Origin: Lentisphaeraceae bacterium
GTDB taxonomy: Bacteria > Verrucomicrobiota > Kiritimatiellia > RFP12 > DVOR01
Length of the DNA stretch: 64,000 bases
Direction: 5' to 3'
Assembly: GCA_004555175.1 (NCBI GenBank)
Contig: SFJE01000002.1
Span: 32,333 to 96,332, forward strand
The notes beneath the pieces are model-generated. The model did not search any database and was not told where the DNA came from. It was given only the letters and a program-made list of their open reading frames with translations. Both the position numbers and the translations under genes were made by a program. Position 1 is the first letter of the stretch. Each line of letters begins with the position of its first letter. This document shows, in pieces, positions 2,855-51,777 of this stretch.

Positions 2855-3685
2855 TCAGTTCACCAACTTCTGGGCCACCCGTTGACCCTTGGTCGGAAAG
2901 ATTCCCAACAACGCCTGCTCGGCCACCTGGCGCGTATCCTCCGGGAAGTCCCCGCGCGTCATCCACTTCAAGTATGCGTGCCCCTCATGCGGATCGTTGG
3001 CCAAATCGCGCAACTTCGTCCCCTTCTTCTTCCCAAAGTTCACGCACACCTCGCCATTCATCCACCGCCAACGCCCCTGGCGATCGACATTCAGCGGATC
3101 CTGCGGATTGAACATCCGGTCCAACGCATCCACGCTCCGTGGCAAATCCGGATAGCGCGCCAGCTGCCCCACCAACACCTCCAGCGTGGCCTGCGCATCC
3201 GCTAAGGCCCCATGCGCATCAGCCCCCAAATCGCGATTGCAATAGAACTTCAAGGCCGCCGTCAGGTCGCGCGGCTCACGCTTGTGGTAGATCTTCTGGG
3301 CATCAACAATCGCGCGCCCATCGGGATGGAAGTCGCGAATACCGCAGCGCAGGAACTCCTCGTTGAGGATCTGCGCATCGAAATAGCCCACCGAGAAGCC
3401 TCCCAGGTCGCACCCCTCAAAGAAGGTAAAGATCTCGAAGGCCTTCTCGGCAAAGGTCGGGCAACTGGCCACCTCTGCGTCTGTGATCCCGTGAATAGCA
3501 ATCGATTCCACCGGAATCTTCACCGTGGGATTAAGCAACCAAACCCGGTCATCGCGCGTTCCATCCGGATTCAACCGCAATGCCGCCAACTCAATAATCC
3601 GATCTGCCCGCGGACTAATCCCCGTCGACTCAATATCAAAGACAATCAACGGCCGCCGCAACACTATGGGAAAGTCAAACTTCAT
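2855..3685 (-). CDS. DnaQ-like 3'-5' exonuclease (DEDDh) with C-terminal extension
   Basis: Exo I motif FDIESTG and Exo III motif HGALADA. The ATG lies 7 nt downstream of an extended -10 box, which suggests a leaderless transcript. Confidence 0.8.
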   Translation of the reverse strand: MKFDFPIVLRRPLIVFDIESTGISPRADRIIELAALRLNPDGTRDDRVWLLNPTVKIPVESIAIHGITDAEVASCPTFAEKAFEIFTFFEGCDLGGFSVGYFDAQILNEEFLRCGIRDFHPDGRAIVDAQKIYHKREPRDLTAALKFYCNRDLGADAHGALADAQATLEVLVGQLARYPDLPRSVDALDRMFNPQDPLNVDRQGRWRWMNGEVCVNFGKKKGTKLRDLANDPHEGHAYLKWMTRGDFPEDTRQVAEQALLGIFPTKGQRVAQKLVN

Positions 3686-3977: not shown

Positions 3978-4172
3978 TGCAGAAGGAAAGGAACGGCGGC
4001 GCGGATTATCACGCGGCGCGGAGAGAACTAACCGCTCGGCGAAGCGCAACTAATAAGGCCCCGTCTTATTGGCAATAAGACCCCGTCTTATTCGCAACAA
4101 GACCCCGTCTTATTGGCAACAAGGCGGGGCCTTATTTATTCAAGTCGCTCGGGAAGCGAGTTAACCCAGCGC
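3978..4172 (+). repeat. interspersed ~195-bp repeat element copy A, with 4 nested AAGACCCCGTCTT-type palindromic units
   Basis: About 97% identical to 30701..30895 in the same orientation. Contains 3 CCCC-type units and 1 GGGG-type unit. Confidence 0.9.
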
Positions 4173-5660: not shown

Positions 5661-5740
5661 CTCCCCTCTATTTTTCTGCAAAGGTCTAACTTTTCTGCTA
5701 TAATGCGGGGCGTTGTATCACCGTTTTGATGGAGAGAGAC

Positions 5741-6001
5741 ATGAGCGCAACAGTGACCGTTGAAATCTGTATGGGCACCACCTGTTATGTGATGGGCAGT
5801 GCTCAATTAGCCGGTATTGCCGAACGCCTGCCGGAAGAGTGGAAGAGCTGCGTGACCGTGAAGGGAATGCGTTGCACTGGCGCTTGCCAGAAGGCTGAGC
5901 AGTTCGGGCGCGCCCCCTTTGTGCGGGTGAATGGCGAGATTATCGCCGAGGCGGACGAGGGGAAGATCCTCTCGGCCATTCGTGCGGCTCTTGAGCAGTA
6001 A
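5741..6001 (+). CDS. thioredoxin-like [2Fe-2S] ferredoxin (NuoE/HndA-like small subunit)
   Basis: Cys pattern CMGTTC ... CTGAC. GGAGAG RBS 5 nt upstream of the ATG at 5741. A TGcTATAAT promoter box lies at 5696-5704. Confidence 0.7.
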   Translation: MSATVTVEICMGTTCYVMGSAQLAGIAERLPEEWKSCVTVKGMRCTGACQKAEQFGRAPFVRVNGEIIAEADEGKILSAIRAALEQ

Positions 6002-6029
6002 TTGAACGCGGACAAAGAGAGGAAGTGTT

Positions 6030-7472
6030 ATGGCTATCCCGATGATTAGCGAAGCCGACCGCCTGCGGCGCGAGGTGCTGGCCTATGTGATTAAGGCTGT
6101 CAAGGCCGGAACCTATGGCGACATTGACCGGATCCCGATTAAGATGCGCCCGAAGGGGCAGCCCTTCTCGCGTTGCTGCATCTATAAGGACCGCGCAGCC
6201 CTGCGTTATCGTTGCATGTCCGCCCTCGGCTTCCGCGTGGAAGATGAAACCGATGAGCTTAAGACGCTCCAATCCTACGCCGAGGACCTAAAGGATAATC
6301 CGCCGGCCGCCGACCCCTTCCTGACCATCTTCCCGGACGCCTGCTCGGCGTGTATGGAATCGCAGATTATGGTCACGAATATGTGCCGCGGCTGCTTGGC
6401 CCGCCCCTGCACCAATATCTGCCCGCGCAAGGCCATTCAAGTGCGCAACGGCCGCGCGCGCATCTCCCACGAGCTGTGCATCAACTGCGGCAAGTGCGCC
6501 GAGGTCTGCCGCTACCACGCCATCATCCAGGTCCCGCTCGCCTGCGCCGATGCCTGCCCCGTGGGCGCCATTGGTAAGACCGATGACGGCCGCGTAACCG
6601 TCGACCACGAAAAGTGCATCCGCTGCGGCAAGTGCATCAAGGCCTGCCCCTTCGCGGCCATTATGCAGAGTAACCAGGTGGCCCATGTGGTCCGCGCCAT
6701 CGCCGAGGGCAAGAAGGTCATCGCCCTGGTCGCCCCCGCCATCAATGGCTTCTTCCCAACCGAGCCCGGCAAGCTCTACACCGCCCTGCGCCAAGTCGGT
6801 TTCTCGGCGGTCTACGAAGTGGCCCGCGGCGGCGATGACACCGCCATTGCCGAGGCGGCCGAGTGGGCCGAACGCAAGGCCGAGGGCGCGCCCTTTATGA
6901 CCACCAGCTGCTGCCCGGCGTGGATTGAGTGCGTGGAGCGTCATATCCCCGAGCTCAAGCCCTACGTCTCCTCCACCCCCACGCCGATGGCCTACACCGA
7001 TAAGCGCGCGAAGGCTGACCATCCGGACGCGGTGACCGTCTTCATCGGCCCGTGCATGGCCAAGCGTACCGAAGCCCACAAGCACGGCTCGCCCGACTAT
7101 GTCATCACCGCCGAGGAGATTGGCGCCTGGTTGATGGCCGAGAACATTCAGCTTGACGACCTGGAAGCCAGCGAGCCCGAGCTCTCCGGCACCCAGTATG
7201 GCGCCGAGTTCGCCATCAGCGGCGGCGTGGCCAACGCTGTGGCCCACTATCTGCCCGAAGGCGTCCCCACCCCGACGGTCTTCAAGATCAACGGCCTCAA
7301 CAAGAAGAACATCGCCCTCCTGCGCGTCTTCGCCAAGACCAAGAAGGCCCCGGCGGAGATTATCGAAGTGATGGTCTGCCCAGGTGGCTGCGTGGCCGGC
7401 CCCTGCGCCATCAACACCCCCGAAGACGCAGCCAAGCTCATCCAGTCTCGCCGCCCTGAAGGCTTCAAGTAA
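6030..7472 (+). CDS. hydA: [FeFe]-hydrogenase catalytic subunit (two F-cluster ferredoxin domains plus H-cluster domain)
   Basis: H-cluster motifs TSCCPAW, GPCMAKRTE (PCxxKxxE) and EVMVCPGGCVAGPC (ExMxCxxGCxxG). Two CxxCxxCxxxCP ferredoxin motifs. An uncharacterized N-terminal extension of about 100 aa. At 480 aa it resembles a large subunit that lacks the C-terminal tail. Confidence 0.8.
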   Translation: MAIPMISEADRLRREVLAYVIKAVKAGTYGDIDRIPIKMRPKGQPFSRCCIYKDRAALRYRCMSALGFRVEDETDELKTLQSYAEDLKDNPPAADPFLTIFPDACSACMESQIMVTNMCRGCLARPCTNICPRKAIQVRNGRARISHELCINCGKCAEVCRYHAIIQVPLACADACPVGAIGKTDDGRVTVDHEKCIRCGKCIKACPFAAIMQSNQVAHVVRAIAEGKKVIALVAPAINGFFPTEPGKLYTALRQVGFSAVYEVARGGDDTAIAEAAEWAERKAEGAPFMTTSCCPAWIECVERHIPELKPYVSSTPTPMAYTDKRAKADHPDAVTVFIGPCMAKRTEAHKHGSPDYVITAEEIGAWLMAENIQLDDLEASEPELSGTQYGAEFAISGGVANAVAHYLPEGVPTPTVFKINGLNKKNIALLRVFAKTKKAPAEIIEVMVCPGGCVAGPCAINTPEDAAKLIQSRRPEGFK

Positions 7473-7473
7473 G

Positions 7474-8820
7474 ATGGCTGGCGATATCGCCTGCATCGGC
7501 GCCGGGTACATCGGCGGCCCCACAATGGCCGTCATTGCCAAGATGTGCCCCGAGCGCCAGGTGTGGGTGGTAGATTGCGACGAAGCAAAGATTGCCGCCT
7601 GGAACTCCGAGGAACTCCCGGTCTACGAGCCGGGCTTGAAGGAAGTTGTGCTCGCCTGCCGCGGGCGCAACCTCTTCTTCTCCACAGACATTGCCGGGGC
7701 CATTCGGCGTTGCGACCTTATCTTCGTGGGCGTGAACACGCCAACCAAGACCTTCGGCGAAGGGGCGGGCTACGCCTCGGACCTGCAGTTCTGGGAGGCG
7801 GCCGCGCGCACCATCGCCGCCGAGGCCAATGGCGACAAGGTGGTCATCGAGAAGTCGACCCTGCCTGTGCGCACGGCCGACGCGATGGCCGCCGTCCTGC
7901 ACACCCACCCGGAACACACCTTCACCGTCCTCTCCAACCCCGAGTTTCTGGCCGAGGGGTCGGCCATTGAGGACCTCCTTCACCCCGACCGCGTGCTCAT
8001 CGGCGGACCCGAAACGCCCGCTGGCCGGGCCGCCGTGGCCGCGCTGACGGAGGTCTATGCCGCGTGGGTCCCGCGCGAGCGCATCCTCACCACGAATGTG
8101 TGGTCGAGCGAACTCTCCAAGTTGGCCGCCAATGCGATGCTCGCCCAGCGCATCTCCTCAATCAACGCCTTCTCGGCCCTTTGCGAGGTGACCGGGGCAG
8201 ACGTTGACGAAGTGGCCAACGTGTTGGGGATGGACCGCCGGATTGGGCCGCACTTCCTCAAGGCCGGCCCCGGCTTCGGCGGCTCGTGCTTCAAGAAGGA
8301 TGTCCTGAGCCTGGTCTACCTCTGCCGCCAGTTCGGCCTCACCGAGTGCGCGGACTACTGGGAAGGAGTCATCCGGATGAACGAGCGCCAGCAGCGGCGC
8401 ATCGTCGAGCGCACGGTCCACGCCCTCTTCAACACCCTCTCGGGCAAGCGCCTGGCCCTCTTCGGCTTCGCCTTCAAGGCCAACACCGGCGACACGCGCG
8501 AGACCCCGGCCTTGGCCATCGCCCGCCGCCTCCTCGAAGAGCGCGCCCAGCTCGTCATCACCGACCCCCGCGCCCTCCCCAACGCGCGGCGGGACCTCGC
8601 GGGCGAGGCGGTCGACTTCTGTGAAGACCCCTACCGCGCGGCTGAGGGGGCCGATGCCATCCTGATCTTGACCGAGTGGGCCGAGTATCGCGCGTTGGAC
8701 TGGGCGCGCATCTACCGCGCCATGCGCAAGCCCGCTCTTCTCTTCGACACGCGTAACCTCTTCGACCAGGCCGCCCTCAAAGCCCTTGGCTTCCGCGTCC
8801 TGGCCGTAGGCAAGCCCTAA
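7474..8820 (+). CDS. ugd: UDP-glucose 6-dehydrogenase
   Basis: GAGYIGG Rossmann motif and catalytic GGSCFKKD. The ATG is 1 nt after the hydA stop. Confidence 0.9.
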   Translation: MAGDIACIGAGYIGGPTMAVIAKMCPERQVWVVDCDEAKIAAWNSEELPVYEPGLKEVVLACRGRNLFFSTDIAGAIRRCDLIFVGVNTPTKTFGEGAGYASDLQFWEAAARTIAAEANGDKVVIEKSTLPVRTADAMAAVLHTHPEHTFTVLSNPEFLAEGSAIEDLLHPDRVLIGGPETPAGRAAVAALTEVYAAWVPRERILTTNVWSSELSKLAANAMLAQRISSINAFSALCEVTGADVDEVANVLGMDRRIGPHFLKAGPGFGGSCFKKDVLSLVYLCRQFGLTECADYWEGVIRMNERQQRRIVERTVHALFNTLSGKRLALFGFAFKANTGDTRETPALAIARRLLEERAQLVITDPRALPNARRDLAGEAVDFCEDPYRAAEGADAILILTEWAEYRALDWARIYRAMRKPALLFDTRNLFDQAALKALGFRVLAVGKP

Positions 8821-9285: not shown

Positions 9286-9798
9286 ATGCCGCGCGCGCTA
9301 GAACTCTGCCTGGTGCTCATGACCCTGCCGCTCTGGGGCGCGGCCATTCTCCTCATCGCGCTGGTGCTGGCCTTCGACCGGCCTATCTTCTTCCGCCAAG
9401 CGCGCCCCGGCCTCTACGGCCGCCCCTTCACCCTTATCAAGTTCCGCACGATGCGCCCGGGCCCCGAGGCCGACGCCGAGCGCCTGACGCGCCTCGGCCG
9501 CTTCCTCCGCGCCACCTCGCTCGATGAACTCCCCGAACTGCTCAACGTCCTGCGCGGCGAGATGGCCCTCGTCGGCCCCCGCCCGCTCCTGATGGCCTAT
9601 CTGGCCGAATACACGCCCGCCGAGCACCACCGCCACGATGTCCGCCCCGGCATCACCGGCTGGGCGCAGGTCCACGGCCGCAACGCCATCACCCGCGCCG
9701 ACAAGGTCCGCTACGACCTCGACTACATCGCCCGCCGCTCCACGGCCTTCGACTTCTACATCCTCTTCCTCACCATCTTTCACCTGCGGGGAAACTAA
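9286..9798 (+). CDS. small bacterial sugar transferase (PglC/WbaP C-terminal-domain type polyprenyl-phosphate glycosyl-1-phosphate transferase)
   Basis: N-terminal membrane helix and conserved KFRTM and DELPQL-like blocks of the bacterial sugar transferase family. 170 aa. Confidence 0.8.
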   Translation: MPRALELCLVLMTLPLWGAAILLIALVLAFDRPIFFRQARPGLYGRPFTLIKFRTMRPGPEADAERLTRLGRFLRATSLDELPELLNVLRGEMALVGPRPLLMAYLAEYTPAEHHRHDVRPGITGWAQVHGRNAITRADKVRYDLDYIARRSTAFDFYILFLTIFHLRGN

Positions 9799-10691
9799 TG
9801 CGCCACCTCTACGCTCTCCTCCTCACGCTCTGCTTCGCCCTGGCCGCCCCGCTCCGCGCCCAGCCCAATCCCTTCGAGGCCTCGGTGGAGACCGTGCGCG
9901 AAAACCGCGTCCCCTTGCGCATCCACCCGGCCAACAACCTCCAGACCCTTCAGGCCACGCTCAACGGCAAGCCCTGCACCCTCCTCTTCGATACGGGTGC
10001 CTCGCACACCACCTTCAACGATGCCTTCATTAAAGCCGCCTTTCCAGACCTCCCCCGCCAGCCGCTTATTCTGCCAGGCCAAACCAACGTCCGCCAGCGG
10101 CCCGACCTCATTCCCGTTGCCTCCCTCTCGCTCGGCAACACCACTCTGCGCGACTTCTACGCGATGGTCCTCCCCCTCGACCACCTCTCGCGCGCGGTCG
10201 GCACCCCCATCGACGGCATCCTCGGCGCTAACTCCATCGCCTACGCCCCCTGCCTCATCTCCCTGCGCCAAGCGGCCGTCACCTGGGCCCCTTCCGCCAA
10301 CGCGCTCCCGGCGAACTTCGCCGCCGCCCCCGAGCTCCCCCTCGCCCCCGAGTGCGCGCCCCTCGCGCCCATCACCCTCCTGGCCCGCCGCACCCCTGAG
10401 GGCGCCCCCTGCCCCCTTTTGCTCGACACCGGCTCCTCCTACACCTTCCTGCCCACCTCCTTCTGGCCCGCTGCCGAGGAGACCCTCGCCCTCGCCGCCA
10501 CCAACGTCAACGCCTCCAACCAGAAGCGCTACCGGCGCGGCCAGCCCGGTTCGCTCCTCCTCGGCGAGTGTTCGCTCCCCATCACCCCGCTCTTAACCGA
10601 CCAGAACCACCACCAAATCGGTGCCGACCTCCTGGCAAACTACGACCTTTTCGTCGACTTCCGCCGCCGTCTCCTCAAGGTGCTCCCATGA
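9798..10691 (+). CDS. secreted retropepsin-like (clan AA) aspartic protease with two tandem DTG domains
   Basis: Signal peptide; LLFDTGASHTTF and LLLDTGSSYTFL catalytic motifs about 145 aa apart. TAATG overlap with the upstream gene. Confidence 0.7.
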   Translation: MRHLYALLLTLCFALAAPLRAQPNPFEASVETVRENRVPLRIHPANNLQTLQATLNGKPCTLLFDTGASHTTFNDAFIKAAFPDLPRQPLILPGQTNVRQRPDLIPVASLSLGNTTLRDFYAMVLPLDHLSRAVGTPIDGILGANSIAYAPCLISLRQAAVTWAPSANALPANFAAAPELPLAPECAPLAPITLLARRTPEGAPCPLLLDTGSSYTFLPTSFWPAAEETLALAATNVNASNQKRYRRGQPGSLLLGECSLPITPLLTDQNHHQIGADLLANYDLFVDFRRRLLKVLP

Positions 10692-11374
10692 CCCCTGCCA
10701 CCCGCGCCCTCGTCCTCCCCTTTGCCCTCTGGATCGGTGGCATCGTTCTCCTCCTCTTCCCGCATAGCTACGACGCGCCGGCCTACCTCTACGCCGCCAA
10801 GACCCTCCTCTGCGCCCTCGCTCTCCTCGTGCTCAAGCCCTGGCGCTATGCCCCCTGCGCCAAACAGCGCGGTGACCTCGCCCTCGGCCTCCTCGTTGGC
10901 CTAGCCGTCTACGCCCTCTGGGCCCTCCCCGAAAGCACCCCGTGGCCTGCCGTGACCGCCTGGTACCGCCGCTGGCTCGTAATGCTCCCCGGCGCACTCC
11001 CCGATTATAGCGCCTCCTGGTGCTACGCCTACCCAAGTCACCCCCTTCTCGCCCTGGTCAAACTGGTCGGCTCGGCCTTCGTCATCGCCCCCATCGAAGA
11101 GTTCTTCTTCCGCGGCTGGTTGATGCGCTCGCTCACCCAGCGCGACTGGCAGGAGCTGCCCCTGGGCAAGGTCTCCACCGCCGCCTTCTGGGCCACCGTG
11201 GCGGTCTTCGCCTTCGAGCACGACCGCTTCCTCGGTGGCGCCCTTGCCGGTCTGACCTACGGCGCCCTCGCCCGCAACACCAATTCCCTGCGTGCCCCCA
11301 TCATCGCCCACGTCACCACCAACCTCCTCCTCGGTCTCCAAGTCCTCCTCGCCGGCCACTACCACTTCTGGTAA
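10688..11374 (+). CDS. CPBP family (CAAX/Abi) intramembrane metalloprotease
   Basis: EEFFFRGWL (EExxxR), FAFEHDRF (FxxxH) and HVTTN motifs; multiple TM helices. ATGA overlap with the upstream gene. Confidence 0.8.
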   Translation: MTPATRALVLPFALWIGGIVLLLFPHSYDAPAYLYAAKTLLCALALLVLKPWRYAPCAKQRGDLALGLLVGLAVYALWALPESTPWPAVTAWYRRWLVMLPGALPDYSASWCYAYPSHPLLALVKLVGSAFVIAPIEEFFFRGWLMRSLTQRDWQELPLGKVSTAAFWATVAVFAFEHDRFLGGALAGLTYGALARNTNSLRAPIIAHVTTNLLLGLQVLLAGHYHFW

Positions 11375-11448
11375 TCCGCGCTCCCTGCCCGCGACGAAGC
11401 AATCTCCCCGTTATGCATTTAGGGGCAAGTGAGTGCGGGAGCGGGTTA

Positions 11449-11462
11449 GGATGTGGTATACT
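11449..11462 (+). promoter_or_regulatory. extended -10 promoter GGATGTGGTATACT, 7 nt upstream of the ATG (leaderless-type)
   Basis: Sequence ATGTGGTATACTGCGC is identical to 18451-18466 upstream of smc. The ATG is at 11470. Confidence 0.5.
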
Positions 11463-11469
11463 GCGCGAT

Positions 11470-14400
11470 ATGTCGAAAGCTAAGCGAGCGAACTTCTTGG
11501 AGAAGGTCGACCGGCTTGCCTTATGGGTGAGCGGGTTGACGGCCTTTGCGGTCTATCTCCTCTCGCTAGGGCCTTCAATTGGCATGGAGGATGCGGGGGA
11601 GTTGGCAACGGCAGCTGACGTGCTGGGGGTTCCGCATCCGCCAGGGTATCCGCTCTGGACGATGCTCTCGTGGCTCTTTTGCCGGGCCTTTGGGTGGGTG
11701 ACATGGCAGGGGTGGCCGAATCCGGGTTGGGCAGTGGCATTGGCGTCGGCGGTGGCGGGAGCGGCAGCAGTGGGGGTGCTGGCGGCAGTGATTTCGCGCT
11801 CGCTGAAGGCGCCGTTGGGGGCGTTAGAAGGGGGAGAGACGGTACGCGGAATTACGGGAATCGGGGCGGCATTGGCCTTTGCCTTCTCACCGGGGATGTG
11901 GTCGCAGTCAGTGATTGTGGAGGTGTATGCACTGGGAGCACTCTTTTTTTCGCTAGTGATGCTCTTGGCGCTAGATTGGCTCGTGCAGCGGCGTGGTTGG
12001 ACCTTGGTGTGGTTGGGGTTAGTCTTTGGGTTGGGGCTGACGAACTATCAGGTGTTGCTCTTGGCGGCGGTGCCATTGGGAGCGATGGTAGCGATTCGGC
12101 GGTGGCGTCTAGCGCGAAGTTTTCTCGCGGTGGCGATTCCGTTGGGGCTGACGATTTACCTGTTGCAACTGGGCGCGATGGAGAGCGCGGATGCACTTTC
12201 GACGCCAGGAGCACCAGTGATTTTGCGGCCGGAGGCGGCCGTTGAGGTGCGTTATCCCGGGGCACTGGCGCCGGAGGCGGCCGTTGAGGTGCGTTATCCC
12301 GGGGCACTGGCGCCGGTGTGGCTCTATGGCGCGTTGGCGGGGTTGGTGCTGGGGATGGCCGGCGTGGCGTGGGCGCGGCCGCGAGGGCGGTGGTGGGCGT
12401 TAGGTACCTTGGCCGGAGCACTTGGCGCGCTCTTGGCCTTCTCGGCGTGGCGCTTTGCAACGCGGGAGGTGCCCGAGGGTTTTGCGGGAACGCTCTACGG
12501 CTTTGGTCGGGCATGGGTTGTGCACGCAGTGGCATTGGGGGGGCTCTGGGCGCTCTGTTGGCGGTGGCGGCGGGCGCGACGCTTTGCCTTTGTGGTGAGT
12601 GTAGGGCAGATGGGGGCGTTGGGGTTGATGGCGCAGGGGCTGATGATGGGGCTAACGCACCCCACAACGGGGTGGTTCTGGTGGCCAATTGTGTGGAATG
12701 GAGTGGTGTTGGCGCTGGCGTGGCGGCTCTTGCCGGGCGGAAAGTGGGTGGCCGGGACGATTGGGGCAGCCGAGGCCGGGCTCGCGGTCTATGGCTATAT
12801 GCCGCTGGCTTCCGACGCGCTAAATCCGGGGATGAATTGGGGGTATGCGCGGACGTGGGAGGGCTTTAAGCACGCGGTCTCGCGCGGACAGTATGAAGCA
12901 ATTTCGCCGGCAAGCATCTGCTCGGTGGCCTATCTCCGGCAGCTGTGGGTCTATCTGGGGGACCTGCGGATGCAGTTTATGGGGCTAGGGATGACGTTGG
13001 GGGCGGCCGGGCTGGTGAGCGCGCTGGGCGTGGCGCGGCGGCGGGTGCAGGGTTATCGGGGAATGCGGCTGTGGCCGTGGGTGACGGTGGGGCTCTTTGT
13101 GATGATGTCGGCGGTGTTGGTGGCATTGGCGAATCCGACGGGGGACATCCAAGATGGCTTTATTCAGAAGGTGAAGTTCATTACCTCGCACCAGCTCTTC
13201 GCGGTGTGGATTGGCTACGGTCTGGCTTTGGCGGCGGTGGGGCTAGCCAAGTGGCGCGGGACCCGCGCGGCGGCGATTGGAGCAGGCGTGCTGGCTGCAG
13301 CCGTCGCGTTGGGGCCGATGGTGGAGAACTTCCGCGACCGCGAGTTGGTTCGGCGCGTTGGGGCCGCCGAGCAGACGGGGCACGACTTTGGGTGGCAGTT
13401 TGGGGCCTACATGATGGGCGGGGCCGAGCAGATCTTGGCCGAGGTGCGCGCAGATGAAGAGCCGCTCCCGGATCCCTTCTGGCCGCCGCCGATGAGTCCG
13501 GGGGCAGTCTACTTTGGCGGGACAGATGCCGGGCGCTTTGTGCCCACCTACCTGGCCTATGCCGTTGGCTTCCGGCCCGATGTCTGTGTGCTCACGCAGA
13601 ATGCCTTGGCCGACCCCACCTATATGAATGTGGAGCGAGACCTCTATGGCGAGCAGCTCTGGCTCCCGACCGCCGATGAGGTCCGGACGGCCTTTACCGA
13701 TTACACCAATGCGGTCCTGGCTGGAAAGCGCACGTCGCGCGGGAAGATTACCGAGGTCAATGGGCGCGTACAGATTAGCGGCTCGGCGGCCGTGATGGAA
13801 ATTTGCGAGGAGCTGGCCCGGCAGATTTGGGAACGGAACCCTGAGCGGGACTTTTATCTAGAGGAGAGCTACCGGATGCCGTGGATGGATGCGGTGCTCG
13901 AGCCCGCGGGGCTGGCGATGCGCCTGCGGCGCGAGGTGGAGGGGCGCGACCTAGCGGCCGACCGCGCGCGGAATGATGACTTTTGGGATTGGATGGTGCG
14001 CCGGCTCATCACGCGCGCGGCTTATGGGCGGGACTTTGCCGCGCAGAAGAGCTTCTCAAAGTTGCGCTCCTCGCAGGCAGGGATTTATGCGCGCAACGGC
14101 CAGGCTGAGGCGGCCGAACGGGCCTTTGGCGAGGCGATGGCACTCTTCCCCATTTCGCCCGATGCCCTCTTCCGTTACCTGCAAGAGTCGCTCCTGCCCC
14201 AGGGGCGCTTTGAGGTGGCTGGGCGAATGTTGCGGCAGTATCTGCGCGTGGATCGCGGCAATACGCGAGCCTATGCGGCCCTAACGCGCGTGGAGGAACT
14301 AGGGAAGGCCGATGCCACCTTTCGCGCCCTGACCCAAAAGGTGCGCGATCAGCAGGCCACGACCGCCGACATCTGCAATTTGGCCCGCACGGCCGAGGCG

Positions 14401-14859
14401 CTTGACCGCCACGAGATTGCCGCCGCCTACTGGGAGCAGGTGGTCTCGGCCGCCGATTTAACCGCTGGGGACGCGCGCGACGGGTGCATTGCCCTGCAGC
14501 GCCTGCGCAAGAACGAGTCGGCAATGGCCCTTCTGCGACGCGTGCCAGAGGCCGTTTGGCCGACCCTTTCGGGGGCGGAGCTGGTGGCCTCATCTGGCTT
14601 GGCCCAGACCTTTGGAGAGCGACAGTTGGCGCTCGCCCTCCTGCAATGTGCCGTAAAGGCCGAGCCACAATCTGGCCGCGTGTGGCTGGGGATTGCCCTT
14701 TTCTATTATGGCGTCGGGGACGAAGCCCGGGCCTACGAGTACATGCGCACGGCAGTGCGCTTTGGAGCCTCCTCGCTCATTGAGGCAGATGAGGCCGTAG
14801 CAGAGGTCTTCTTGCACCTAGTGCGTCGCTACGGTCCACAGAAAGGAGTCGCGCAATGA
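11470..14859 (+). CDS. DUF2723/TMEM260-like GT-C family membrane glycosyltransferase (putative protein O-mannosyltransferase-like) with C-terminal TPR repeats
   Basis: N-terminal block GELATAADVLGVPHPPGYPLW matches the TMEM260/DUF2723 signature (GVAHPPGYPLF). Many TM helices and a C-terminal TPR-like region. Start chosen at MSKAKRAN; the ORF is open back to 11020. Confidence 0.7.
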   Translation: MSKAKRANFLEKVDRLALWVSGLTAFAVYLLSLGPSIGMEDAGELATAADVLGVPHPPGYPLWTMLSWLFCRAFGWVTWQGWPNPGWAVALASAVAGAAAVGVLAAVISRSLKAPLGALEGGETVRGITGIGAALAFAFSPGMWSQSVIVEVYALGALFFSLVMLLALDWLVQRRGWTLVWLGLVFGLGLTNYQVLLLAAVPLGAMVAIRRWRLARSFLAVAIPLGLTIYLLQLGAMESADALSTPGAPVILRPEAAVEVRYPGALAPEAAVEVRYPGALAPVWLYGALAGLVLGMAGVAWARPRGRWWALGTLAGALGALLAFSAWRFATREVPEGFAGTLYGFGRAWVVHAVALGGLWALCWRWRRARRFAFVVSVGQMGALGLMAQGLMMGLTHPTTGWFWWPIVWNGVVLALAWRLLPGGKWVAGTIGAAEAGLAVYGYMPLASDALNPGMNWGYARTWEGFKHAVSRGQYEAISPASICSVAYLRQLWVYLGDLRMQFMGLGMTLGAAGLVSALGVARRRVQGYRGMRLWPWVTVGLFVMMSAVLVALANPTGDIQDGFIQKVKFITSHQLFAVWIGYGLALAAVGLAKWRGTRAAAIGAGVLAAAVALGPMVENFRDRELVRRVGAAEQTGHDFGWQFGAYMMGGAEQILAEVRADEEPLPDPFWPPPMSPGAVYFGGTDAGRFVPTYLAYAVGFRPDVCVLTQNALADPTYMNVERDLYGEQLWLPTADEVRTAFTDYTNAVLAGKRTSRGKITEVNGRVQISGSAAVMEICEELARQIWERNPERDFYLEESYRMPWMDAVLEPAGLAMRLRREVEGRDLAADRARNDDFWDWMVRRLITRAAYGRDFAAQKSFSKLRSSQAGIYARNGQAEAAERAFGEAMALFPISPDALFRYLQESLLPQGRFEVAGRMLRQYLRVDRGNTRAYAALTRVEELGKADATFRALTQKVRDQQATTADICNLARTAEALDRHEIAAAYWEQVVSAADLTAGDARDGCIALQRLRKNESAMALLRRVPEAVWPTLSGAELVASSGLAQTFGERQLALALLQCAVKAEPQSGRVWLGIALFYYGVGDEARAYEYMRTAVRFGASSLIEADEAVAEVFLHLVRRYGPQKGVAQ
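12229..12312 (+). repeat. exact 42-bp x2 in-frame tandem duplication (PEAAVEVRYPGALA x2) inside the DUF2723 gene
   Basis: Positions 12229-12270 are identical to 12271-12312. Confidence 0.95.
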
Positions 14860-30700: not shown

Positions 30701-30895
30701 TGCAGAAGGAAAGGAACGGCGGCGCGGATTATCACGCGGCGCGAAGAGAACTAACCGCTCGGCGGAGCGCAACTAATAAGGCCCCGTCTTATTGGTAACA
30801 AGGCCCCGTCTTATTGGCAACAAGACCCCGTCTTATTGGCAACAAGGCGGGGCCTTATTTATTCAAGTCGCTCGGGAAGCGAGTTAACCCAGCGC
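30701..30895 (+). repeat. interspersed ~195-bp repeat element copy B
   Basis: About 97% identical to 3978..4172 in the same orientation. Confidence 0.9.
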
Positions 30896-31485: not shown

Positions 31486-31841
31486 TGGTGGAGGTGGCGG
31501 GAATTGAACCCGCGTCCAAAGCAGCTTCACAGCGATGTCTACGTGCGTAGCCGGATCTTTGTGTCGCGCAAGGCAAGCCAACCGGCGGGCCAGACCTTGA
31601 GCCACCCTTCATGATGGTACGGTTACGTGTTCCCGAGGGGCCGGTTCACGCAGAGACCTGCGGGTTGACGCGTCCGCCCTTAGCAGGTGTCAGGGGTTCA
31701 GCGACGGGCCAAAAAGGTTAGGCCGCGTAGGCGAAGTTATCGTTCGCAGTTAGGTTTTTGATCGATGTTTTACGGGGCCAACGATCATCCCCGGCACGCA
31801 ACCGAAGTTCCGACATGCCCTGTCGAGACCTGGTCACCCCC
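31486..31841 (-). ncRNA. ssrA: tmRNA (ssrA); encoded tag peptide ANDNFAYAA
   Basis: 5' end GGGGGUGACCAGG and 3' end GGACGCGGGUUCAAUUCCCGCCACCUCCACCA (T-arm plus CCA). Resume codon and tag ORF GCGAACGATAACTTCGCCTACGCGGCCTAA. Confidence 0.9.
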
Positions 31842-34312: not shown

Positions 34313-37300
34313 ATGAATTGGATGTGCGCGCACGGAATAGCTGCGGTTTGCTTATGGATCGGGACGCTGCTCCCGGGAGTGGCGGCAGCGACAAGCTTGG
34401 AGGGCGCAACGCTTTGGCGCGCAGTGCGCGAGCGCTTCCCGGAGCTAGCGTTGACCGAGGATGTTTCGCCGACGGTGCGCGTGGCCACGGATCGGGCCTC
34501 GCTTCAGGATGCCTTGACGGCGGCTGTAACCGAGGCGGGGGAGGACCTCATTCTCTTGGATGGTCGAACCTCAGCCGAATGGACGGGTTCAACCTCAGTG
34601 ACAGTAACGATGGCCAATGGCGGCATTACCGTGGTCTCCCAAAATCCCGAGACGGGCGACTTTGAAACGCCGGTCACCTTCAAGGGCTTTGGCTTTGCCG
34701 CCACCCTATCTGCCTCTGCGCCCCTGCGCCTAGCCAACTTCGCCATTGTCGAAGCCACGACACAGCAAGCGAGTCCCATTTTTTGCTGTGCGTTGAACTT
34801 TGTGGGTTCAGGTATGGTGGTTGGAAGCGCCCTTTCAATTGTTAACTGTGGCGCAACATCAAGTACGGTTTATGCAGGTGGCGTTTATGCAATGGGTTCA
34901 ACGGTTTCGCTTTACAACACAACCATCGCCAATACGTTCACAGCGTTGTATGGAGCGGTTACCACGACGAGTGCCACGGTGACCCTAACGCATTGCACCC
35001 TCTCCGGGAACAAGAGTGCCAATGGGACAACCGTGACGACTGTTACGCGCAACGGTTCTGATGCCACCGCCCTCAATTGTTGGATGCCCGATTCGGCGGC
35101 GGTGGTGACGATGGGCGCGGGGTTGCCCCATTGCGTGCCGAAGGCCTCCGACGCGGCTATTGATGGGGCGACGGCGGAGAGCATTCTCGCGTTCGATGCG
35201 CTCGGGCGAACGCGGAAGAGTGGCGCGGCGGCGGATTTGGGCGCAGTCGAGGTCCAGGAGAGCGTAACCGTGGAGCCGCCGGCGGACCTGGTGGCGATGC
35301 CGTCGGGTCCACGCCAGGTCTACCTGGGCTGGAGCGCCATTCCGCGGGCGCAGGGCTACACCCTTGCGCGCGCGAACTCCGAGGCGGGTCCGTGGGAGGA
35401 TATTTCGGCGCAGACGCTCTGGCGCTCGCCGGGAACGGGGCGCGCGGACACGATTGCTGGTTGGGCGAGTGCGCGCTTTGTCGCGGCCAAACCGGGGAGT
35501 GCGGCCTACTATCGTCTCTCGATTCTTGTGGAGGGACAGGAGACGATCCAGTGCGAGCCCATGTACGTTGAGACCCCGGCAGCGGAGGCCGTGTCTGCCT
35601 ACCATTCGCGTCCCGGGGCAACGCGGTGCATCTATCTGGACTTTACGGGCTATGTGGAGGACTCGGCTGCACTGGTCGCCGCCGCCCGCGAGGAGCTCTC
35701 GGAGCCAGAGATGACCTATATCGCCACAGCCCCCTTTGAATATGTTGGGCGCTTTGGCGATCGCTCGCAGGTCTACCCCACGGCCTCCGCCATTTACGAC
35801 ATTTGGCGAATGGTAGCCGAAGACTTCGCTGCTTTCGACGTGGATGTCACCACCGAGCCACCCGCGTATGAGGCGTTGGTGAAGGAATCGGATGAGGATG
35901 AGGTCTACGGCAAGCGAGTGGTCATTGGCTACGCGCAGGGGACCTCGAGCCCGTGGTATTCGGGCGGTGGGGCCTTTGCCGGCGGCGGGTACTTCGGCGA
36001 GCGCGTCGATCGGCCGGTCTTCATCTTCAGCGTCCAGTCGCGCCAGAACATTGCCGCGCAGGTCACGCATGAAGTCTCGCACACCCTCGGGCTCTCGCAC
36101 GATAGCGGCAATGTCTGGTTTGGCGACTTTCGTGGTTCGCAGACCTACTACCAAGGCGTGGAGCTCACCCGCAGTGGCGAATTGAACACGAGTGCCACCT
36201 GGGAGAGCAACATCACATGGTACCCGGTGATGGGCGCAGCCCCGACGGTCCAGAAGGCAACCACCTCCGCCGGCGAGTATTACTACTATGACAGTGGCGA
36301 CTTCATCAACCAGTGGAGCCGCGGCAGCTACGCCTCGGCCACGAACCAGGAGGACGACTTTGCCATCCTGCTCGGCCTAGCTGTGGGCTCCGGCACGCAG
36401 TTTGTTGGGGAGCCGGACTTTGAGGCTGCCGCGCGGAACCTGGTGCTGGCCGCGGATGAAGCCGGGGATACCCCCGCTCAGGCCGCTGACCTTGGCGCAC
36501 TGGATGTGGGCGGAGATCAAGCCGCGCAGGGGGTGATTGGCAAGCACGTCACCGAGGCAGGCGCGGTGACCGAGGATGTGGATTGCTACGCCTTGGAGGT
36601 CGCGCAGGGCGGCTGGCTGGAGGCGGCGGTGGTGCCCGGTTTTGAGGGACTAACTGAAGGTGCCTCGCTTGATGCCTGCCTCGAACTTCTCTCCCCCGAG
36701 GGCGATCTCCTCGCCCGCGCCGAGTTGCCCCTGGGCATTGTGGAGGAGGTCACCTTCTCGCGCGTTCGCGAGGCGGGGCTTCGGATGCTTGTGCCAGCGG
36801 CCGGGCGCTACATCCTGCGCGTCTCGGGCACCGTCCACCCCGTCTTTAGCACCACCCTTTCGCCCGACGGCTCGGCCTCGGCCGAGACCCCGTGGTTCTT
36901 CAATGACCGCGAGGCTTATGGCTCCATCGGCCCCTACTCGCTCTCGGCAACCCTCTCCGCAGCCTCGGCCGCAGACCTGCCCGCCTTCCCCAAGCCCCTC
37001 GCAGGCGACGACTCCGCCTACACCCCCGCCGCCCAGCGCGCCCTCTACCAAGCGGCCAACGGGAGTGTCCCCGTCTCAATCCGCGCCACCGATGGCCGCA
37101 CGGAGGTCCTCTCCGCCCAGGCCATCAGTGAAGCCCTCGCTTGCCTCTCCGGCGCGCTTGTCCCCGAGGGCGAAGGCCTAGCGCTCGACTATCGTTTTGA
37201 GGTGACCCATCTCACCCTCGCCGAGGATTCGCTGACCGTTACCGTCGCCCTCTCCTCGCCCTTGGAGGGGTGCGACATCGCCTTCGCCGAGGGCATCACC

Positions 37301-37441
37301 TTCATTCTAACCGACTGGCGCACGGGCTCGGAGATTCGCATCGAGGCCTCCGCCGTCACGGAAGTGGACGCACGCACCCGCCGCTTTGCCCTCACACCCC
37401 CCGCCGGACTCACCTGCTTCCGCGTTCGCGTAAAGCATTAG
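34313..37441 (+). CDS. secreted multidomain metzincin-type zinc metalloprotease (beta-helix repeats, FN3, HExxHxxGxxHD catalytic domain, PPC-like C-terminal domains)
   Basis: Signal peptide; HEVSHTLGLSHD motif. TATAAT at 34245 with AAGGA SD. Confidence 0.65.
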   Translation: MNWMCAHGIAAVCLWIGTLLPGVAAATSLEGATLWRAVRERFPELALTEDVSPTVRVATDRASLQDALTAAVTEAGEDLILLDGRTSAEWTGSTSVTVTMANGGITVVSQNPETGDFETPVTFKGFGFAATLSASAPLRLANFAIVEATTQQASPIFCCALNFVGSGMVVGSALSIVNCGATSSTVYAGGVYAMGSTVSLYNTTIANTFTALYGAVTTTSATVTLTHCTLSGNKSANGTTVTTVTRNGSDATALNCWMPDSAAVVTMGAGLPHCVPKASDAAIDGATAESILAFDALGRTRKSGAAADLGAVEVQESVTVEPPADLVAMPSGPRQVYLGWSAIPRAQGYTLARANSEAGPWEDISAQTLWRSPGTGRADTIAGWASARFVAAKPGSAAYYRLSILVEGQETIQCEPMYVETPAAEAVSAYHSRPGATRCIYLDFTGYVEDSAALVAAAREELSEPEMTYIATAPFEYVGRFGDRSQVYPTASAIYDIWRMVAEDFAAFDVDVTTEPPAYEALVKESDEDEVYGKRVVIGYAQGTSSPWYSGGGAFAGGGYFGERVDRPVFIFSVQSRQNIAAQVTHEVSHTLGLSHDSGNVWFGDFRGSQTYYQGVELTRSGELNTSATWESNITWYPVMGAAPTVQKATTSAGEYYYYDSGDFINQWSRGSYASATNQEDDFAILLGLAVGSGTQFVGEPDFEAAARNLVLAADEAGDTPAQAADLGALDVGGDQAAQGVIGKHVTEAGAVTEDVDCYALEVAQGGWLEAAVVPGFEGLTEGASLDACLELLSPEGDLLARAELPLGIVEEVTFSRVREAGLRMLVPAAGRYILRVSGTVHPVFSTTLSPDGSASAETPWFFNDREAYGSIGPYSLSATLSAASAADLPAFPKPLAGDDSAYTPAAQRALYQAANGSVPVSIRATDGRTEVLSAQAISEALACLSGALVPEGEGLALDYRFEVTHLTLAEDSLTVTVALSSPLEGCDIAFAEGITFILTDWRTGSEIRIEASAVTEVDARTRRFALTPPAGLTCFRVRVKH

Positions 37442-42321: not shown

Positions 42322-42839
42322 GGCGCCTCCTGCCCGGCCGCTTGCTCTAGGTGCTGCGAGCGCACGCGCGCTTCGCCTTGAGCCGCAGGGTCATACAGAA
42401 AAGGCTCCTCCCAACCATCCTCCAAGGCCGCTTGGCGCAGCAATCCCTCGCTAACCAACTCCTCCAGCTTTGCCGGCGCGCTCCCCCCATAGGCCAGCGA
42501 ATACTCCAAGAGTGCCGCCCGGATTTGCCGCAAGCGCAGGAGCGTTACCCGCCGCGCTTCAACGCCGGGCATCACATAGCGATACCATGAGCCTGTTGCG
42601 TCATCCGTTTGATAGGCCTCGCCCGGGGCCTTGACCGCCCGGCCGAGGTTTCCATAGCAAATGCCAATCCCCATGCCGATGGTAATAGCCGCAATCACGG
42701 CACAGACCGGCCCCGAGAAACGAGCGGCACGCGCCTGTTTCTGGCGCGCCAAACGCCTCTCCGGCACCCGGCTCTTCGCCTGAGAGGGGCGCCGGAGAGA
42801 GGCTTTGGGGCGATGGCGTCTGCGCCGGACGTGTGCCAT
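42318..42839 (-). CDS. hypothetical single-TM protein, weak GspG-pseudopilin-like C-terminal region
   Basis: Basic N-terminus, one TM helix, LLEYSLAYGG ... DPAAQGE block. Start overlaps the glyA stop (TAATG). Confidence 0.35.
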   Translation of the reverse strand: MAHVRRRRHRPKASLRRPSQAKSRVPERRLARQKQARAARFSGPVCAVIAAITIGMGIGICYGNLGRAVKAPGEAYQTDDATGSWYRYVMPGVEARRVTLLRLRQIRAALLEYSLAYGGSAPAKLEELVSEGLLRQAALEDGWEEPFLYDPAAQGEARVRSQHLEQAAGQEAP

Positions 42840-44524
42840 TACGGCACCGGGAAGTGCGCCACGAGCGCGCGCACCTCTTCACGCACGCGCTGCTGGAGCG
42901 CGGTGTCTTCGGGCGACTTGAGGATCTCGACGATCCAACCGCCGAGCTTGACCATCTCGGGCTCCTTCATTCCGCGCGTGGTCACCGCAGCGGTACCGAT
43001 GCGGATACCGGAGGTGACGAAGGGGCTCTCGGTGTCGTAGGGGATGGTGTTCTTGTTGCAGATGATGCCCGCAGCATCCAACGCCGCGGCCGCCAGCTTA
43101 CCCGTCAGCCCCGAGGCCTTCACGTCCACCAGGAAGAGGTGGTTATCCGTGCCCCCGGAGACGAGCCGGAAGCCAGCCTCCTGCAACACCTTTGCCAGCG
43201 CCTGCGTATTGGCGACAATCTGCGCGGCATAGGCGTGCGCATCGCGGTGGAGCCACTCGTTAAAGCAAACCGCCTTGGCCGCGATAACATTCTCCAGCGG
43301 ACCGCCCTGGATGCCCGGGAAGACCGTCTTATTGATGGCCCCGATGTACTTCTCCTTGCAGAGAATGAGGCCCGAGCGCGGGCCGCGCAAGGTCTTGTGT
43401 GTAGTGGTGGTCACGAAGTCGGCATAAGGCACCGGCGAGGGGTGAACGCCGCCAGCAATCAGACCGGCAATGTGGGCCATATCCACCATCAAGTAGGCGC
43501 CCACCTTGTCGGCAATCGCCCGGAAGCGGGCAAAGTCAATCACGCGCGGATAGGCCGAAGCGCCCGCCAAGATGAGCTGGGGCTTGACCTCCATCGCCTG
43601 CGCCTCAATCGCGTCATAATCGAGCTGCTCGGTCTCCTTGTTCACCACGTAGGGGACAATGTTGTAGAGCTTGCCCGAGAAGTTCACCGGCGAGCCGTGG
43701 CTCAAGTGGCCGCCCTGATCCAGGCTCATCGAGAGAATCGTGTCACCCGGCTTGAGCATCGCAAAAAAGACCGCCATATTCGCCGCGCTGCCGCAGTGCG
43801 GCTGGACATTCGCCGCCTCGGCCCCGAAGAGCTTCTTGGCGCGCTCGATGGCCAACTGCTCGACCGCGTCCACCGGCAAACATCCGCTATACCAGCGCTT
43901 GCCCGGATAGCCCTCGGCGTACTTGTTATTCAGCACCGAGCCCTGCGCCTCGCGCACGGCCGCGGAGGTGTAGTTCTCCGAGGCTATCAGGTTGACCGTC
44001 TCATCCTCCTGCTTCACCTGCGCGACAATCGCCGCATGCACCTCAGGGTCGGCCCACGCCAAGAGCGAAGACTCGGCCAGACGGCCCGCGCGGTCGCACT
44101 TCACCAGGCGTCGGGCGTGACGCTCAGCCCCCGAGAACGGCGTATCCAGCCACACGCCCAGGGCGCGCTCGGCCGCAGCCTCGCTCAACGCGCGGGCCGA
44201 AAGGATTAGGACATTGGCATCATTATGCTCGCGCGAGAGCTTCGCCACCGCTTCATCGGTGACAATCGCCGCGCGAATACCGGTGAAACGGTTGGCCGTG
44301 ATGCTCATCCCAATCCCCGTCGAGCACAATAGCACCCCGCGATCGGCCTTCTTCTCCAAAACCGCCTCGCAGACCGCCACCGCAAAGTCCGGATAGTCAT
44401 CAGCGGCTTCGGCGTTGAATGAACCCACATCCACCACCGTCTCGCCGCGCGCTTCCAGCACCGCAGCCAACTTCGCCTTCAGGGCTACGCCCGCATGATC
44501 GCAACCAATCGCAATCGTACTCAT
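42839..44524 (-). CDS. rpiB-glyA: fusion protein: ribose-5-phosphate isomerase B (N-terminal ~145 aa) fused to serine hydroxymethyltransferase
   Basis: RpiB signature IAIGCDHAG ... [11 protein letters not shown] followed in the same frame by SHMT blocks [36 protein letters not shown]. Start at MSTIAIG with AGAGGAG upstream. Confidence 0.8.
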
Positions 44525-44609
44525 CTCTCTCGTATGCTCCTCTTTCGGAATGTCGAATAAAGAAAACGGCGAAAGTATACCACAATCCCACCCCGTACGC
44601 GCACAATGC

Positions 44610-46748: not shown

Positions 46749-46974
46749 GCTAGCCGCGTGCGCGTGTGCACGCAAGTCGACAGTGAACAGTCGACAGGAC
46801 GCGGCAAGCCGCGACGGACGGGCTCTCGTTAGAAGTATTGAGCTTCATCGTTTCAGACTTTCGCTTGTTCGTCGCGTTAGCGCACGGCGACTCGACTGTC
46901 GACTATTCACTCTCCTCTGTCGGCCGGGCGCAACCTCCCCCATGCCGGGCGAAAACCTCCTCCCGGGGCGGGAG

Positions 46975-47047
46975 GAATTATTAAGACCCCGTCTTAATTC
47001 AAACAAGACGGGGTCTTATTTGCAATAAGACGGGGTCTTATTAGTTT
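46975..47047. repeat. partial copy C of the palindromic-unit repeat (3 AAGACSSSGTCTT units, mixed orientation)
   Basis: ttattaagaccccgtcttaatt ... aagacggggtcttatt ... aataagacggggtcttatt. Confidence 0.8.
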
Positions 47048-51142: not shown

Positions 51143-51165
51143 TTTCCAACCCCGAAAGGAATCCT

Positions 51166-51777
51166 ATGAAAACCCTCCTTTGCGCCTGTGCGCTCCTCTG
51201 CGCCTTCAACCTGAAGGCCGCCTCGGTCCCCTCCATCGTTGTGGTGGATATGGAGGCCATTATTGCCCACCACCCCAACACCCCCAACGACAAGAAGTTG
51301 CTTGAGGACACCCTCGCCGAATTCTCCCAAGAACGCGATGCCCTGCGCGCGGCCATCAAGGCCAAGCAGACCGATCTGGAAAAGCAGGTCCAGGAGGCCC
51401 AGAACCCGATGATTGCCCCGGCCAAGGCCGAAGAACTGCGCAAGGCCTGCGAGGCCAAGTTCCGCGAAATCCAACGCGACACCGATGCCGCCGAGCAGAA
51501 GATGGCCAGCCGCTCCCGCGAACTCTCCGACCTCGAGGACCGCCTGCTCAAGCGCACCACCAAGGAAATCCAAGCCCACATCGCCGCCTACGCCAAGGAG
51601 AAGGGTTTCCAGGTGGTGCTCTATAAGAATATGGTCCCCTATGTCACCCCCGAGCGGGACATCACTGACCTCATCATCGTGCTCTGCGGCGGCAGGCCCG
51701 AGCCTAAGGACTCCTCCAAGGGCGCCGACGAGCTCAAGCCCGCCGCCACGCTCGAAGACTCTCTTCCCACCAAGTAA
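51166..51777 (+). CDS. skp: OmpH/Skp-like periplasmic chaperone
   Basis: Signal peptide and a coiled-coil OmpH family protein immediately downstream of bamA. Confidence 0.75.
   Translation: MKTLLCACALLCAFNLKAASVPSIVVVDMEAIIAHHPNTPNDKKLLEDTLAEFSQERDALRAAIKAKQTDLEKQVQEAQNPMIAPAKAEELRKACEAKFREIQRDTDAAEQKMASRSRELSDLEDRLLKRTTKEIQAHIAAYAKEKGFQVVLYKNMVPYVTPERDITDLIIVLCGGRPEPKDSSKGADELKPAATLEDSLPTK

Follow-up and report, generated by a model that had tools for sequence, protein, structure and literature searches.

A two-lobed, single-chain retropepsin-like aspartic protease predicted in a Lentisphaeraceae bacterium

Introduction

How does a protein with two DTG active-site motifs in one short chain fit the accepted division of the aspartic proteases, and what might it do for the bacterium that makes it? 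In the literature, pepsins are as a rule described as bilobed monomers and retropepsins as homodimers (PMC2761423, PMC4140852, PMC11957791, bioRxiv 10.1101/2025.03.18.643919). Bacterial enzymes have been described on both sides of this rule, namely pepsin homologs (PMC2761423) and the single-lobe, homodimeric retropepsin-like enzymes APRc (PMC4140852), RimB (PMC11957791) and RloA (bioRxiv 10.1101/2025.03.18.643919). The question is raised by a gene at positions 9798-10691 of a 64,000-nucleotide stretch of the genome of a Lentisphaeraceae bacterium (GenBank assembly GCA_004555175.1, contig SFJE01000002.1, positions 32,333-96,332; this whole stretch is referred to here as the window). An initial annotation described the gene product as a secreted retropepsin-like protease in which an internal tandem duplication had given rise to a pepsin-like bilobal monomer. 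The analysis presented here makes it likely that the gene product is a soluble, single-chain aspartic endopeptidase of clan AA that is exported by the Sec route, probably to the periplasm, where it may process or degrade exported or envelope proteins.

Results

Two related lobes, each with an active-site motif

The 297-residue open reading frame (ORF) with two DTG motifs is present as the initial annotation had claimed, and it looks like a real gene, given its coding signal (G+C content of 0.89 at third codon positions, GC3, versus 0.50 at second positions, GC2), a ratio of nonsynonymous to synonymous substitution rates (dN/dS) of 0.31-0.46 against orthologs, which is below 1, and its homologs, of which a word-indexed search gave 26 at E<=1e-3 and an exhaustive search, at E<=1e-10, gave 1,520 representative clusters. 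A second copy of the gene was not found within the 64-kb window, and no public name is on record for the protein or for four of its relatives. The gene and the parts of its product are as follows.

9798-10691 (+): gene for the precursor of a two-lobed retropepsin-like aspartic protease, 297 residues, recognized from the ORF, Pfam matches, homologs and coding signal
9798-9860 (+): predicted Sec signal peptide, residues 1-21 (MRHLYALLLTLCFALAAPLRA, followed by Q), from hydropathy, with a putative cleavage site
9903-10286 (+): N-lobe, residues ~36-163, from a PF13650 match of 51 bits over residues 52-145, the modeled secondary structure and conservation
9990-9998 (+): N-lobe catalytic motif D65-T66-G67 (GAT ACG GGT), followed by Ala68, within LLFDTGASHTTF
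10083-10091 (+): candidate N-lobe flap T96-N97-V98, nearly invariant, in a low-confidence loop of residues 82-102
10218-10226 (+): N-lobe hydrophobic-hydrophobic-Gly (psi-loop) motif I141-L142-G143 (ILGAN), with G143 invariant
10287-10373 (+): Pro/Ala-rich interlobe linker, residues ~164-192, the least conserved part of the protein
10374-10688 (+): C-lobe, residues ~193-297, from a PF13650 score of 17.6 bits when taken alone, the hhalign match to the N-lobe, and matches to ASPRV1 and Ddi1/2
10425-10433 (+): C-lobe catalytic motif D210-T211-G212 (GAC ACC GGC), followed by Ser213, within LLLDTGSSYTFL
10506-10511 (+): candidate C-lobe flap V237-N238, nearly invariant, at the hairpin tip of strands 225-232 and 243-248
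10614-10622 (+): C-lobe hydrophobic-hydrophobic-Gly motif QIG, residues 273-275, a lobe-specific form with G275 and D277 invariant

Both lobes have kept the active-site motif together with a hydrophobic-hydrophobic-Gly motif downstream of it, as LFDTGA and ILG in the N-lobe and as LLDTGS and QIG in the C-lobe, where most relatives have LLG in place of QIG. Residues D65, T66, G67, G143, D210, G212, G275 and D277 are invariant in all 22 sequences that were aligned. Motif counts were made on a larger set, consisting of the 156 proteins that span both lobes among 168 relatives collected. The N-lobe motif is DTG in 151 of these 156, the C-lobe motif is D[TS]G in 142 and DSA in 9 more, and the catalytic Asp is present in 155 of the 156 in each lobe. 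Each lobe has a signature of its own that is fixed throughout the family, the N-lobe combining DTGA with ILGxN and the C-lobe D[ST]G[AS] with LLGxD. The N-lobe is also better conserved than the C-lobe, with a mean identity to homologs of 58% (residues 48-163) versus 43%, and the linker falls to 26%.

According to the initial annotation, similar hydrophobic blocks flank the two DTG motifs. BLASTP of one half against the other aligned only 24 residues around the DTG motif, at 50% identity with a pairwise E-value of 2e-5. When the alignment of 22 sequences was cut into columns of the N-half and the C-half and the two profiles were compared with hhalign, however, they aligned over 103 columns with a probability of 96.3% and an E-value of 1.9e-9, and the similarity thus extends past the tripeptides. 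The aligned span begins with the strand preceding DTG, takes in the flap region and the hydrophobic-hydrophobic-Gly motif and ends with the last strand, and within it the TNV motif of the N-lobe is aligned with the VN motif of the C-lobe. This alignment of half profiles, together with the conservation of the motifs, rules out a chance occurrence of two DTG motifs in the chain.

The proposed internal tandem duplication fared less simply. The halves are homologous, as that proposal implies, and a recent internal duplication is ruled out by the short BLASTP match, the lack of a DNA-level repeat in 9798-10691 and the low scores of lobe against lobe. The C-lobe profile scored at most 22 bits against partner N-lobes, with the same ceiling in the reverse direction, and the C-lobe region of the full profile scored 28 bits against human ASPRV1; since these scores come from slightly different profiles, the comparison is a rough one. 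To that approximation, the lobes appear to be at least as distant from each other as they are from remote single-lobe domains such as ASPRV1. Because the lobe-lobe scores are no better than the score against ASPRV1, duplication in place and fusion of paralogs look alike, and the event that joined the lobes may have been either a very old duplication or a fusion of two paralogs that had already diverged. In either case the fixed, lobe-specific signatures place the joining event before the radiation of the family.

Retropepsin-like sequence and pepsin-like architecture

Pfam assigns the protein to retropepsin-like families. PF13650 (Asp_protease_2) matches the whole protein in two stretches with 65.2 bits (cut-off 24.3), and PF13975 matches it with 43 bits (cut-off 28.2). 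In a search of PDB sequences with the family profile, the C-lobe region matched human ASPRV1 with an E-value of 7e-6 and Ddi1/Ddi2 with E-values of about 2e-4 (up to 3e-4). The Pfam models of pepsin family A1 (PF00026 Asp, TAXi_N/TAXi_C) gave no match to the protease even at E<=10, and pepsin chains were not significant in the PDB profile search, the best reaching E-values of 0.02-0.2 over the DTG segment only. Membership of family A1, represented by pepsin, chymosin, endothiapepsin, renin and the bacterial shewasins, thus has no sequence support. Membership of TIGR02281 (clan_AA_DTGA) was rejected as well, with 17 bits against a cut-off of 57.95.

An AlphaFold2 model, run on the alignment, is a two-lobed aspartic protease with a predicted local distance difference test score (pLDDT) of 88 and a predicted template modeling score (pTM) of 0.85. 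Each lobe has the retropepsin fold in this model, and one catalytic Asp lies in each lobe of a bilobal monomer, as in pepsin-type enzymes; the model pairs the lobes within one chain, which differs from the homodimer of single lobes found elsewhere in clan AA. The top match of the model in a Foldseek search against the PDB was 9IY9 (E-value of 1.7e-13), followed by pepsins, chymosin, renin, fungal aspartic proteases and single-chain or tethered HIV-1 protease dimers. Since pepsins and 9IY9 can be superposed on the chain as a whole, across 225-269 residues, the lobes are predicted to adopt a pepsin-like orientation with the two psi-loops face to face. By sequence, then, the lobes are retropepsin-like, and the overall architecture is predicted to be pepsin-like. 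Because the lobes match retropepsin-like domains and pepsins give no significant match, the description of the protein as a pepsin-like bilobal monomer built from retropepsin halves is a fair one.

9IY9 is a 'putative endopeptidase' (Exported protein) of 420 residues from Bacteroides fragilis that was released on 2025-08-06. The family profile matched it collinearly across both lobes with an E-value of 2.6e-6, and like the window protein it has a D-T/S-G motif in each lobe. The two proteins come from different phyla and have 16-17% sequence identity, and the window protein lacks the N-terminal region of ~150 residues that 9IY9 has, its lobes beginning at about residue 36.

Predicted export

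The N-terminus of the protease resembles a Sec signal peptide, with Arg2, hydrophobic residues at positions 4-17 and then PLRA before the Q that would follow cleavage. Hydropathy of the whole protein revealed no second hydrophobic segment. Residues 2-15 form an isolated helix in the AlphaFold2 model, and the aligned homologs likewise start with a hydrophobic stretch. About 14 residues separate the predicted cleavage site from the first strand, and no propeptide is evident. The window also contains genes for BamA and Skp (48767-51777), which indicates that the host has an outer membrane. The initial annotation called the protein secreted; the signal-like N-terminus agrees with export as predicted from sequence, and since the host is a diderm gut bacterium of the Kiritimatiellae, the periplasm would be the simplest location for the exported protease.

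Distribution of the architecture

The initial annotation set the two-lobed form apart on the premise that retropepsin-like proteases normally have one DTG motif per subunit and act as homodimers. That premise overstated the rarity of the form, as the two-lobed form has a crystal structure and 156 of the 168 proteins that we collected span both lobes; this form is the norm of a sizeable bacterial family and no peculiarity of the window gene. Among the best 150 representatives (one per cluster at 50% identity), most have 270-330 residues and a single profile match spanning both lobes, and a few have N-terminal extensions (420-460 residues) as 9IY9 does. A scan of species-level genomes found the family in Kiritimatiellia, Lentisphaerae, Victivallales, Opitutales and Akkermansia, mainly in samples from gut and rumen. 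In the same scan the nearest genomes to the window, with 86-89% identity, were Candidatus Spyradenecus and other gut metagenome-assembled genomes of Kiritimatiellae. The Akkermansia members have 285-300 residues and two D-T/S-G motifs.

The architecture is therefore already known: PDB 9IY9 and no fewer than 150 sequence clusters share it, and hundreds of uncharacterized bacterial proteins have it. Our literature searches turned up neither a description of a natural single-chain, two-lobed retropepsin nor, within the library covered, a paper on 9IY9, and those for bacterial tandem or two-domain forms gave single-lobe enzymes only.

Gene neighborhood

The protease gene overlaps the genes on either side of it.

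9286-9798 (+): 170-residue polyprenyl-phosphate sugar-phosphate transferase (small phosphoglycosyl transferase) consisting of the catalytic domain only (Bac_transf; PF02397, 179.8 bits)
10688-11374 (+): 228-residue CPBP (Rce1-like) intramembrane protease (PF02517, 56.6 bits; TIGR03008 'pepcterm_CAAX', 114.7 bits versus a cut-off of 81.05)

The ATG of the protease gene overlaps the TAA of the transferase gene by 1 nt (TAATG, 9796-9800), and its TGA overlaps the ATG of the CPBP gene by 4 nt (ATGA, 10688-10691). Of TIGR03025 and TIGR03023, the transferase covers the C-terminal catalytic part alone, and its scores fall below the cut-offs of both models. TIGR03008, whose cut-off the CPBP neighbor passes, is an NCBIfam equivalog model for a PEP-CTERM/exosortase-associated 'CAAX prenyl protease-related protein'.

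Transferase, protease and CPBP genes recur in this order among loci whose proteases are 34-89% identical, and the outer flanks of these loci differ. Within the sub-clade to which the window protein belongs (identity of at least 41%, plus two loci at 34%), the protease gene usually lies between the transferase gene and a TIGR03008-type CPBP gene, and the CPBP gene stays linked to the protease gene even where it is inverted (loci L012 and L019). In the window, the trio is preceded at 5726-8820 (+) by genes for a small 2Fe-2S thioredoxin-like protein, a multi-4Fe-4S Fe-hydrogenase-like protein, UDP-glucose dehydrogenase and a C_GCAxxG_C_C protein, an order that is kept in closer relatives (L001 and L007). 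The protease evolves at two to three times the rate of the products of the genes that overlap it (9286-11374 compared with loci L002, L006, L007, L009 and L010). Protein identity in the same genomes is 45-54% for the protease versus 65-80% for the transferase and CPBP protein, and dN/dS is 0.31-0.46 versus 0.11-0.25, with about 0.05 for UDP-glucose dehydrogenase between close relatives.

Other features of the window

Several features elsewhere in the window were noted in passing. A 22-nt unit, AAG[A/G]CCCCGTCTTATTGGCAAC, is present in about three tandem copies at two intergenic sites, with a related unit at a third (4055-4123, 30778-30848 and 46991-47042). The unit contains a short palindrome, AAGAC...GTCTT, and could represent a repeat dispersed among intergenic regions or an array that binds a protein. 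At 12228-12316 there is a perfect in-frame tandem duplication of 42 nt (2.1 copies, 100% match) that repeats a segment of 14 residues (PEAAVEVRYPGALA). It sits in a gene at about 11437-14859 (+) for a large TMEM260/DUF2723-like membrane protein with TPR repeats, and it reflects either a duplication that took place very recently or an error of assembly. Three long ORFs and an RNA gene are listed below.

34313-37441 (+): 1,042-residue ORF with a strong coding signal (GC3 of 0.75) and no Pfam match at E<=1e-5
42839-44719 (-): 626-residue ORF in which a ribose-5-phosphate isomerase B (LacAB_rpiB) domain is fused to a full serine hydroxymethyltransferase
44610-46775 (-): 721-residue ORF with a HELGH zinc-metalloprotease motif, which was missed by the GC3-based gene caller
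31486-31841 (-): transfer-messenger RNA gene (Rfam RF00023, 160.6 bits), in the part of the window with the lowest G+C content, 55.7%

Discussion

If the protein is the single-chain endopeptidase that we consider likely, a plausible mechanism can be outlined. Removal of the signal peptide (residues 1-21) would leave a mature protein of ~30 kDa, which would fold into two non-identical retropepsin-like lobes (residues ~36-163 and ~193-297) tied together by the Pro/Ala-rich linker. Each lobe would contribute one Asp, D65 or D210, within a D-T-G psi-loop that is braced by that lobe's hydrophobic-hydrophobic-Gly motif. Opposed across the interlobe cleft, D65 and D210 may then activate one water molecule, which is the chemistry of pepsin and of the retropepsin homodimer. 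With both halves in one chain, dimerization would be unnecessary and an asymmetric substrate cleft could evolve.

The predicted enzyme can be set against both of the classical types. Retroviral proteases (A2), Ddi1/Ddi2 (A28), ASPRV1/SASPase, Rickettsia APRc and Pseudomonas RimB and RloA have one lobe per chain, are obligate dimers and have a symmetric site, whereas the window protein has two diverged lobes in a fused chain and is predicted to have an intrinsically asymmetric site that functions independently of protein concentration. Engineered, tethered dimers of HIV-1 protease (1HVC, 3KA2, 4EQ0) are its artificial counterpart. Compared with pepsins, the mature protein is shorter (~275 residues versus ~325) and has no evident propeptide. 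Pepsin has one flap, whereas both lobes of the window protein keep a conserved flap-like loop (TNV at 96-98 and VN at 237-238), and two flaps, as in retropepsins, are therefore likely. The DTGA sequence of the N-lobe is the form found in retropepsins, and together with the apparent lack of a propeptide it suggests activity near neutral pH without zymogen activation, by analogy with renin, HIV protease and bacterial pepsin homologs (PMC2761423).

Two alternatives would give the same chain a different biochemistry. The protein could be an inactive, two-lobed binding protein on an aspartic-protease scaffold, like TAXI (wheat xylanase inhibitor), soybean basic 7S globulin, cockroach Bla g 2 and the C-terminal domain of PE_PGRS16. 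Known inactive homologs of aspartic proteases have typically lost or altered at least one of the D-T/S-G or hydrophobic-hydrophobic-Gly motifs. Here, both motifs of both kinds are kept in relatives down to 24-30% identity, with the catalytic Asp so nearly universal in each lobe (155 of 156), which makes a binding protein very unlikely. It is also conceivable that the lobes form no site within the chain, each pairing instead with its counterpart in a second chain, or that the C-lobe is a removable inhibitor or pro-domain. All characterized bacterial retropepsin-like enzymes are homodimers, as for APRc (PMC4140852), RimB (PMC11957791) and RloA (10.1101/2025.03.18.643919), and a linker as long (~30 residues) and as poorly conserved as this one would be compatible with such an arrangement. 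The model nevertheless packs the lobes together within one chain with a pTM of 0.85, and the whole chain superposes on pepsins and 9IY9 over the length given above. The conserved, lobe-specific variants (ILGxN versus LLGxD, and DTGA versus D[ST]G[AS]) are moreover what would be expected of a fixed heterologous pairing, so that either arrangement appears extremely improbable.

A further question is what the protease would act on. The overlap of its gene with those of the transferase and the TIGR03008-type CPBP protein points to processing of envelope or exported proteins that is tied to surface-glycan or protein-sorting functions, and a secreted bacterial retropepsin-like protease, RloA, acts in the envelope (bioRxiv 10.1101/2025.03.18.643919). 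The synteny hints at such a role in one clade only. A nutritional or host-directed role, in which a protease of the same architecture would break down diet- or host-derived proteins or glycoproteins (mucins, for example) and the gene order would be inherited without functional meaning, is a serious alternative, even if we regard it as unlikely. The family occurs mostly in gut and rumen bacteria (Kiritimatiellae, Lentisphaerae, Victivallales and Akkermansia), the faster evolution of the protease gene relative to its neighbors (dN/dS of 0.31-0.46 versus 0.05-0.25) is shared by many exported proteins that face the environment, and the window encodes a GH2 beta-galactosidase that carries an F5/8 type C domain. 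A possible precedent is Amuc_1434* of Akkermansia muciniphila, a protease of a gut member of the Verrucomicrobia that is described as secreted, with DTG and LLG motifs, inhibition by pepstatin A and a pH optimum of ~8; it degrades Muc2 and was likened by its authors to APRc (PMC6982040). Amuc_1434* has a mass of ~50 kDa, however, and is at most a candidate member of the family. A plain signal peptide in a diderm would also deliver the protein to the periplasm rather than to the outside of the cell, unless there were a further secretion step. In addition, the stop/start overlaps on both sides of the gene and a linkage to the CPBP gene that has survived inversion (L012 and L019) argue for a functional tie among the three genes.

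Some of our observations weigh against the view that the protein is a two-lobed protease with an envelope role. On the structural side, the C half alone falls below the 24.3-bit cut-off of PF13650, and the model is least confident at the two putative flaps, with a pLDDT of 60 for residues 91-100 and 56 for residues 231-240. As for the neighborhood, loci L015-L017, which belong to the closer clade, have the transferase gene and no CPBP gene within the stretch available, and most loci at 30-40% identity have neither neighbor, a pattern that also speaks for the nutritional role; in the two loci of this group for which genes were listed, the protease gene adjoins the DFP and RsgA genes. The genes in the 12 kb around the protease gene form a single long series on one strand, so that co-orientation alone means little.

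The context suggested by the CPBP gene was likewise not found. The TIGR03008 family is defined by its link to the PEP-CTERM/exosortase system. A Pfam scan of 43 predicted proteins of the window, outside which a few ORFs such as those at 1971-2966, 2855-3685 and 44610-46775 lay, detected no exosortase domain; a simple scan for the C-terminal motif found no PEP-CTERM protein in the window, and neither component is among the listed genes of the homologous loci. An exosortase/PEP-CTERM setting for the trio was therefore rejected for the parts of the window that were scanned. These points notwithstanding, we favor a periplasmic, single-chain protease that acts on exported or envelope proteins.

It is still debated whether pepsins go back to a retropepsin-like gene that was duplicated and fused. 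Bacteria offer a natural test case for this origin in a large family whose single chains contain two retropepsin-like lobes, and the same family is a natural counterpart to the engineered HIV-1 protease dimers. Because the lobes are still retropepsin-like by sequence and the chain already has the predicted lobe arrangement of pepsin, the family could be read as an extant intermediate, in bacteria, between retropepsins and pepsins, the product either of the ancient duplication-fusion shared with family A1 or of an independent replay of it. In its boldest form, this reading would add an undescribed three-gene envelope module, consisting of a minimal phosphoglycosyl transferase, the protease and a TIGR03008-type CPBP protein, in one clade of Kiritimatiellae/Lentisphaerae. 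We regard this combined proposal as quite unlikely.

The window gene adds nothing qualitatively new, because its architecture is already represented in sequence databases and by PDB 9IY9, and its value is that of a well-documented example whose conserved neighborhood points to where a substrate may be sought. Taken alone, the window gene is accordingly of modest interest; the family, which is of a kind that is known but little studied, holds somewhat more. Its members are predicted to be small, apparently propeptide-free aspartic proteases of gut bacteria that probably work at neutral pH, and they may help to show how the bilobed pepsins came about.

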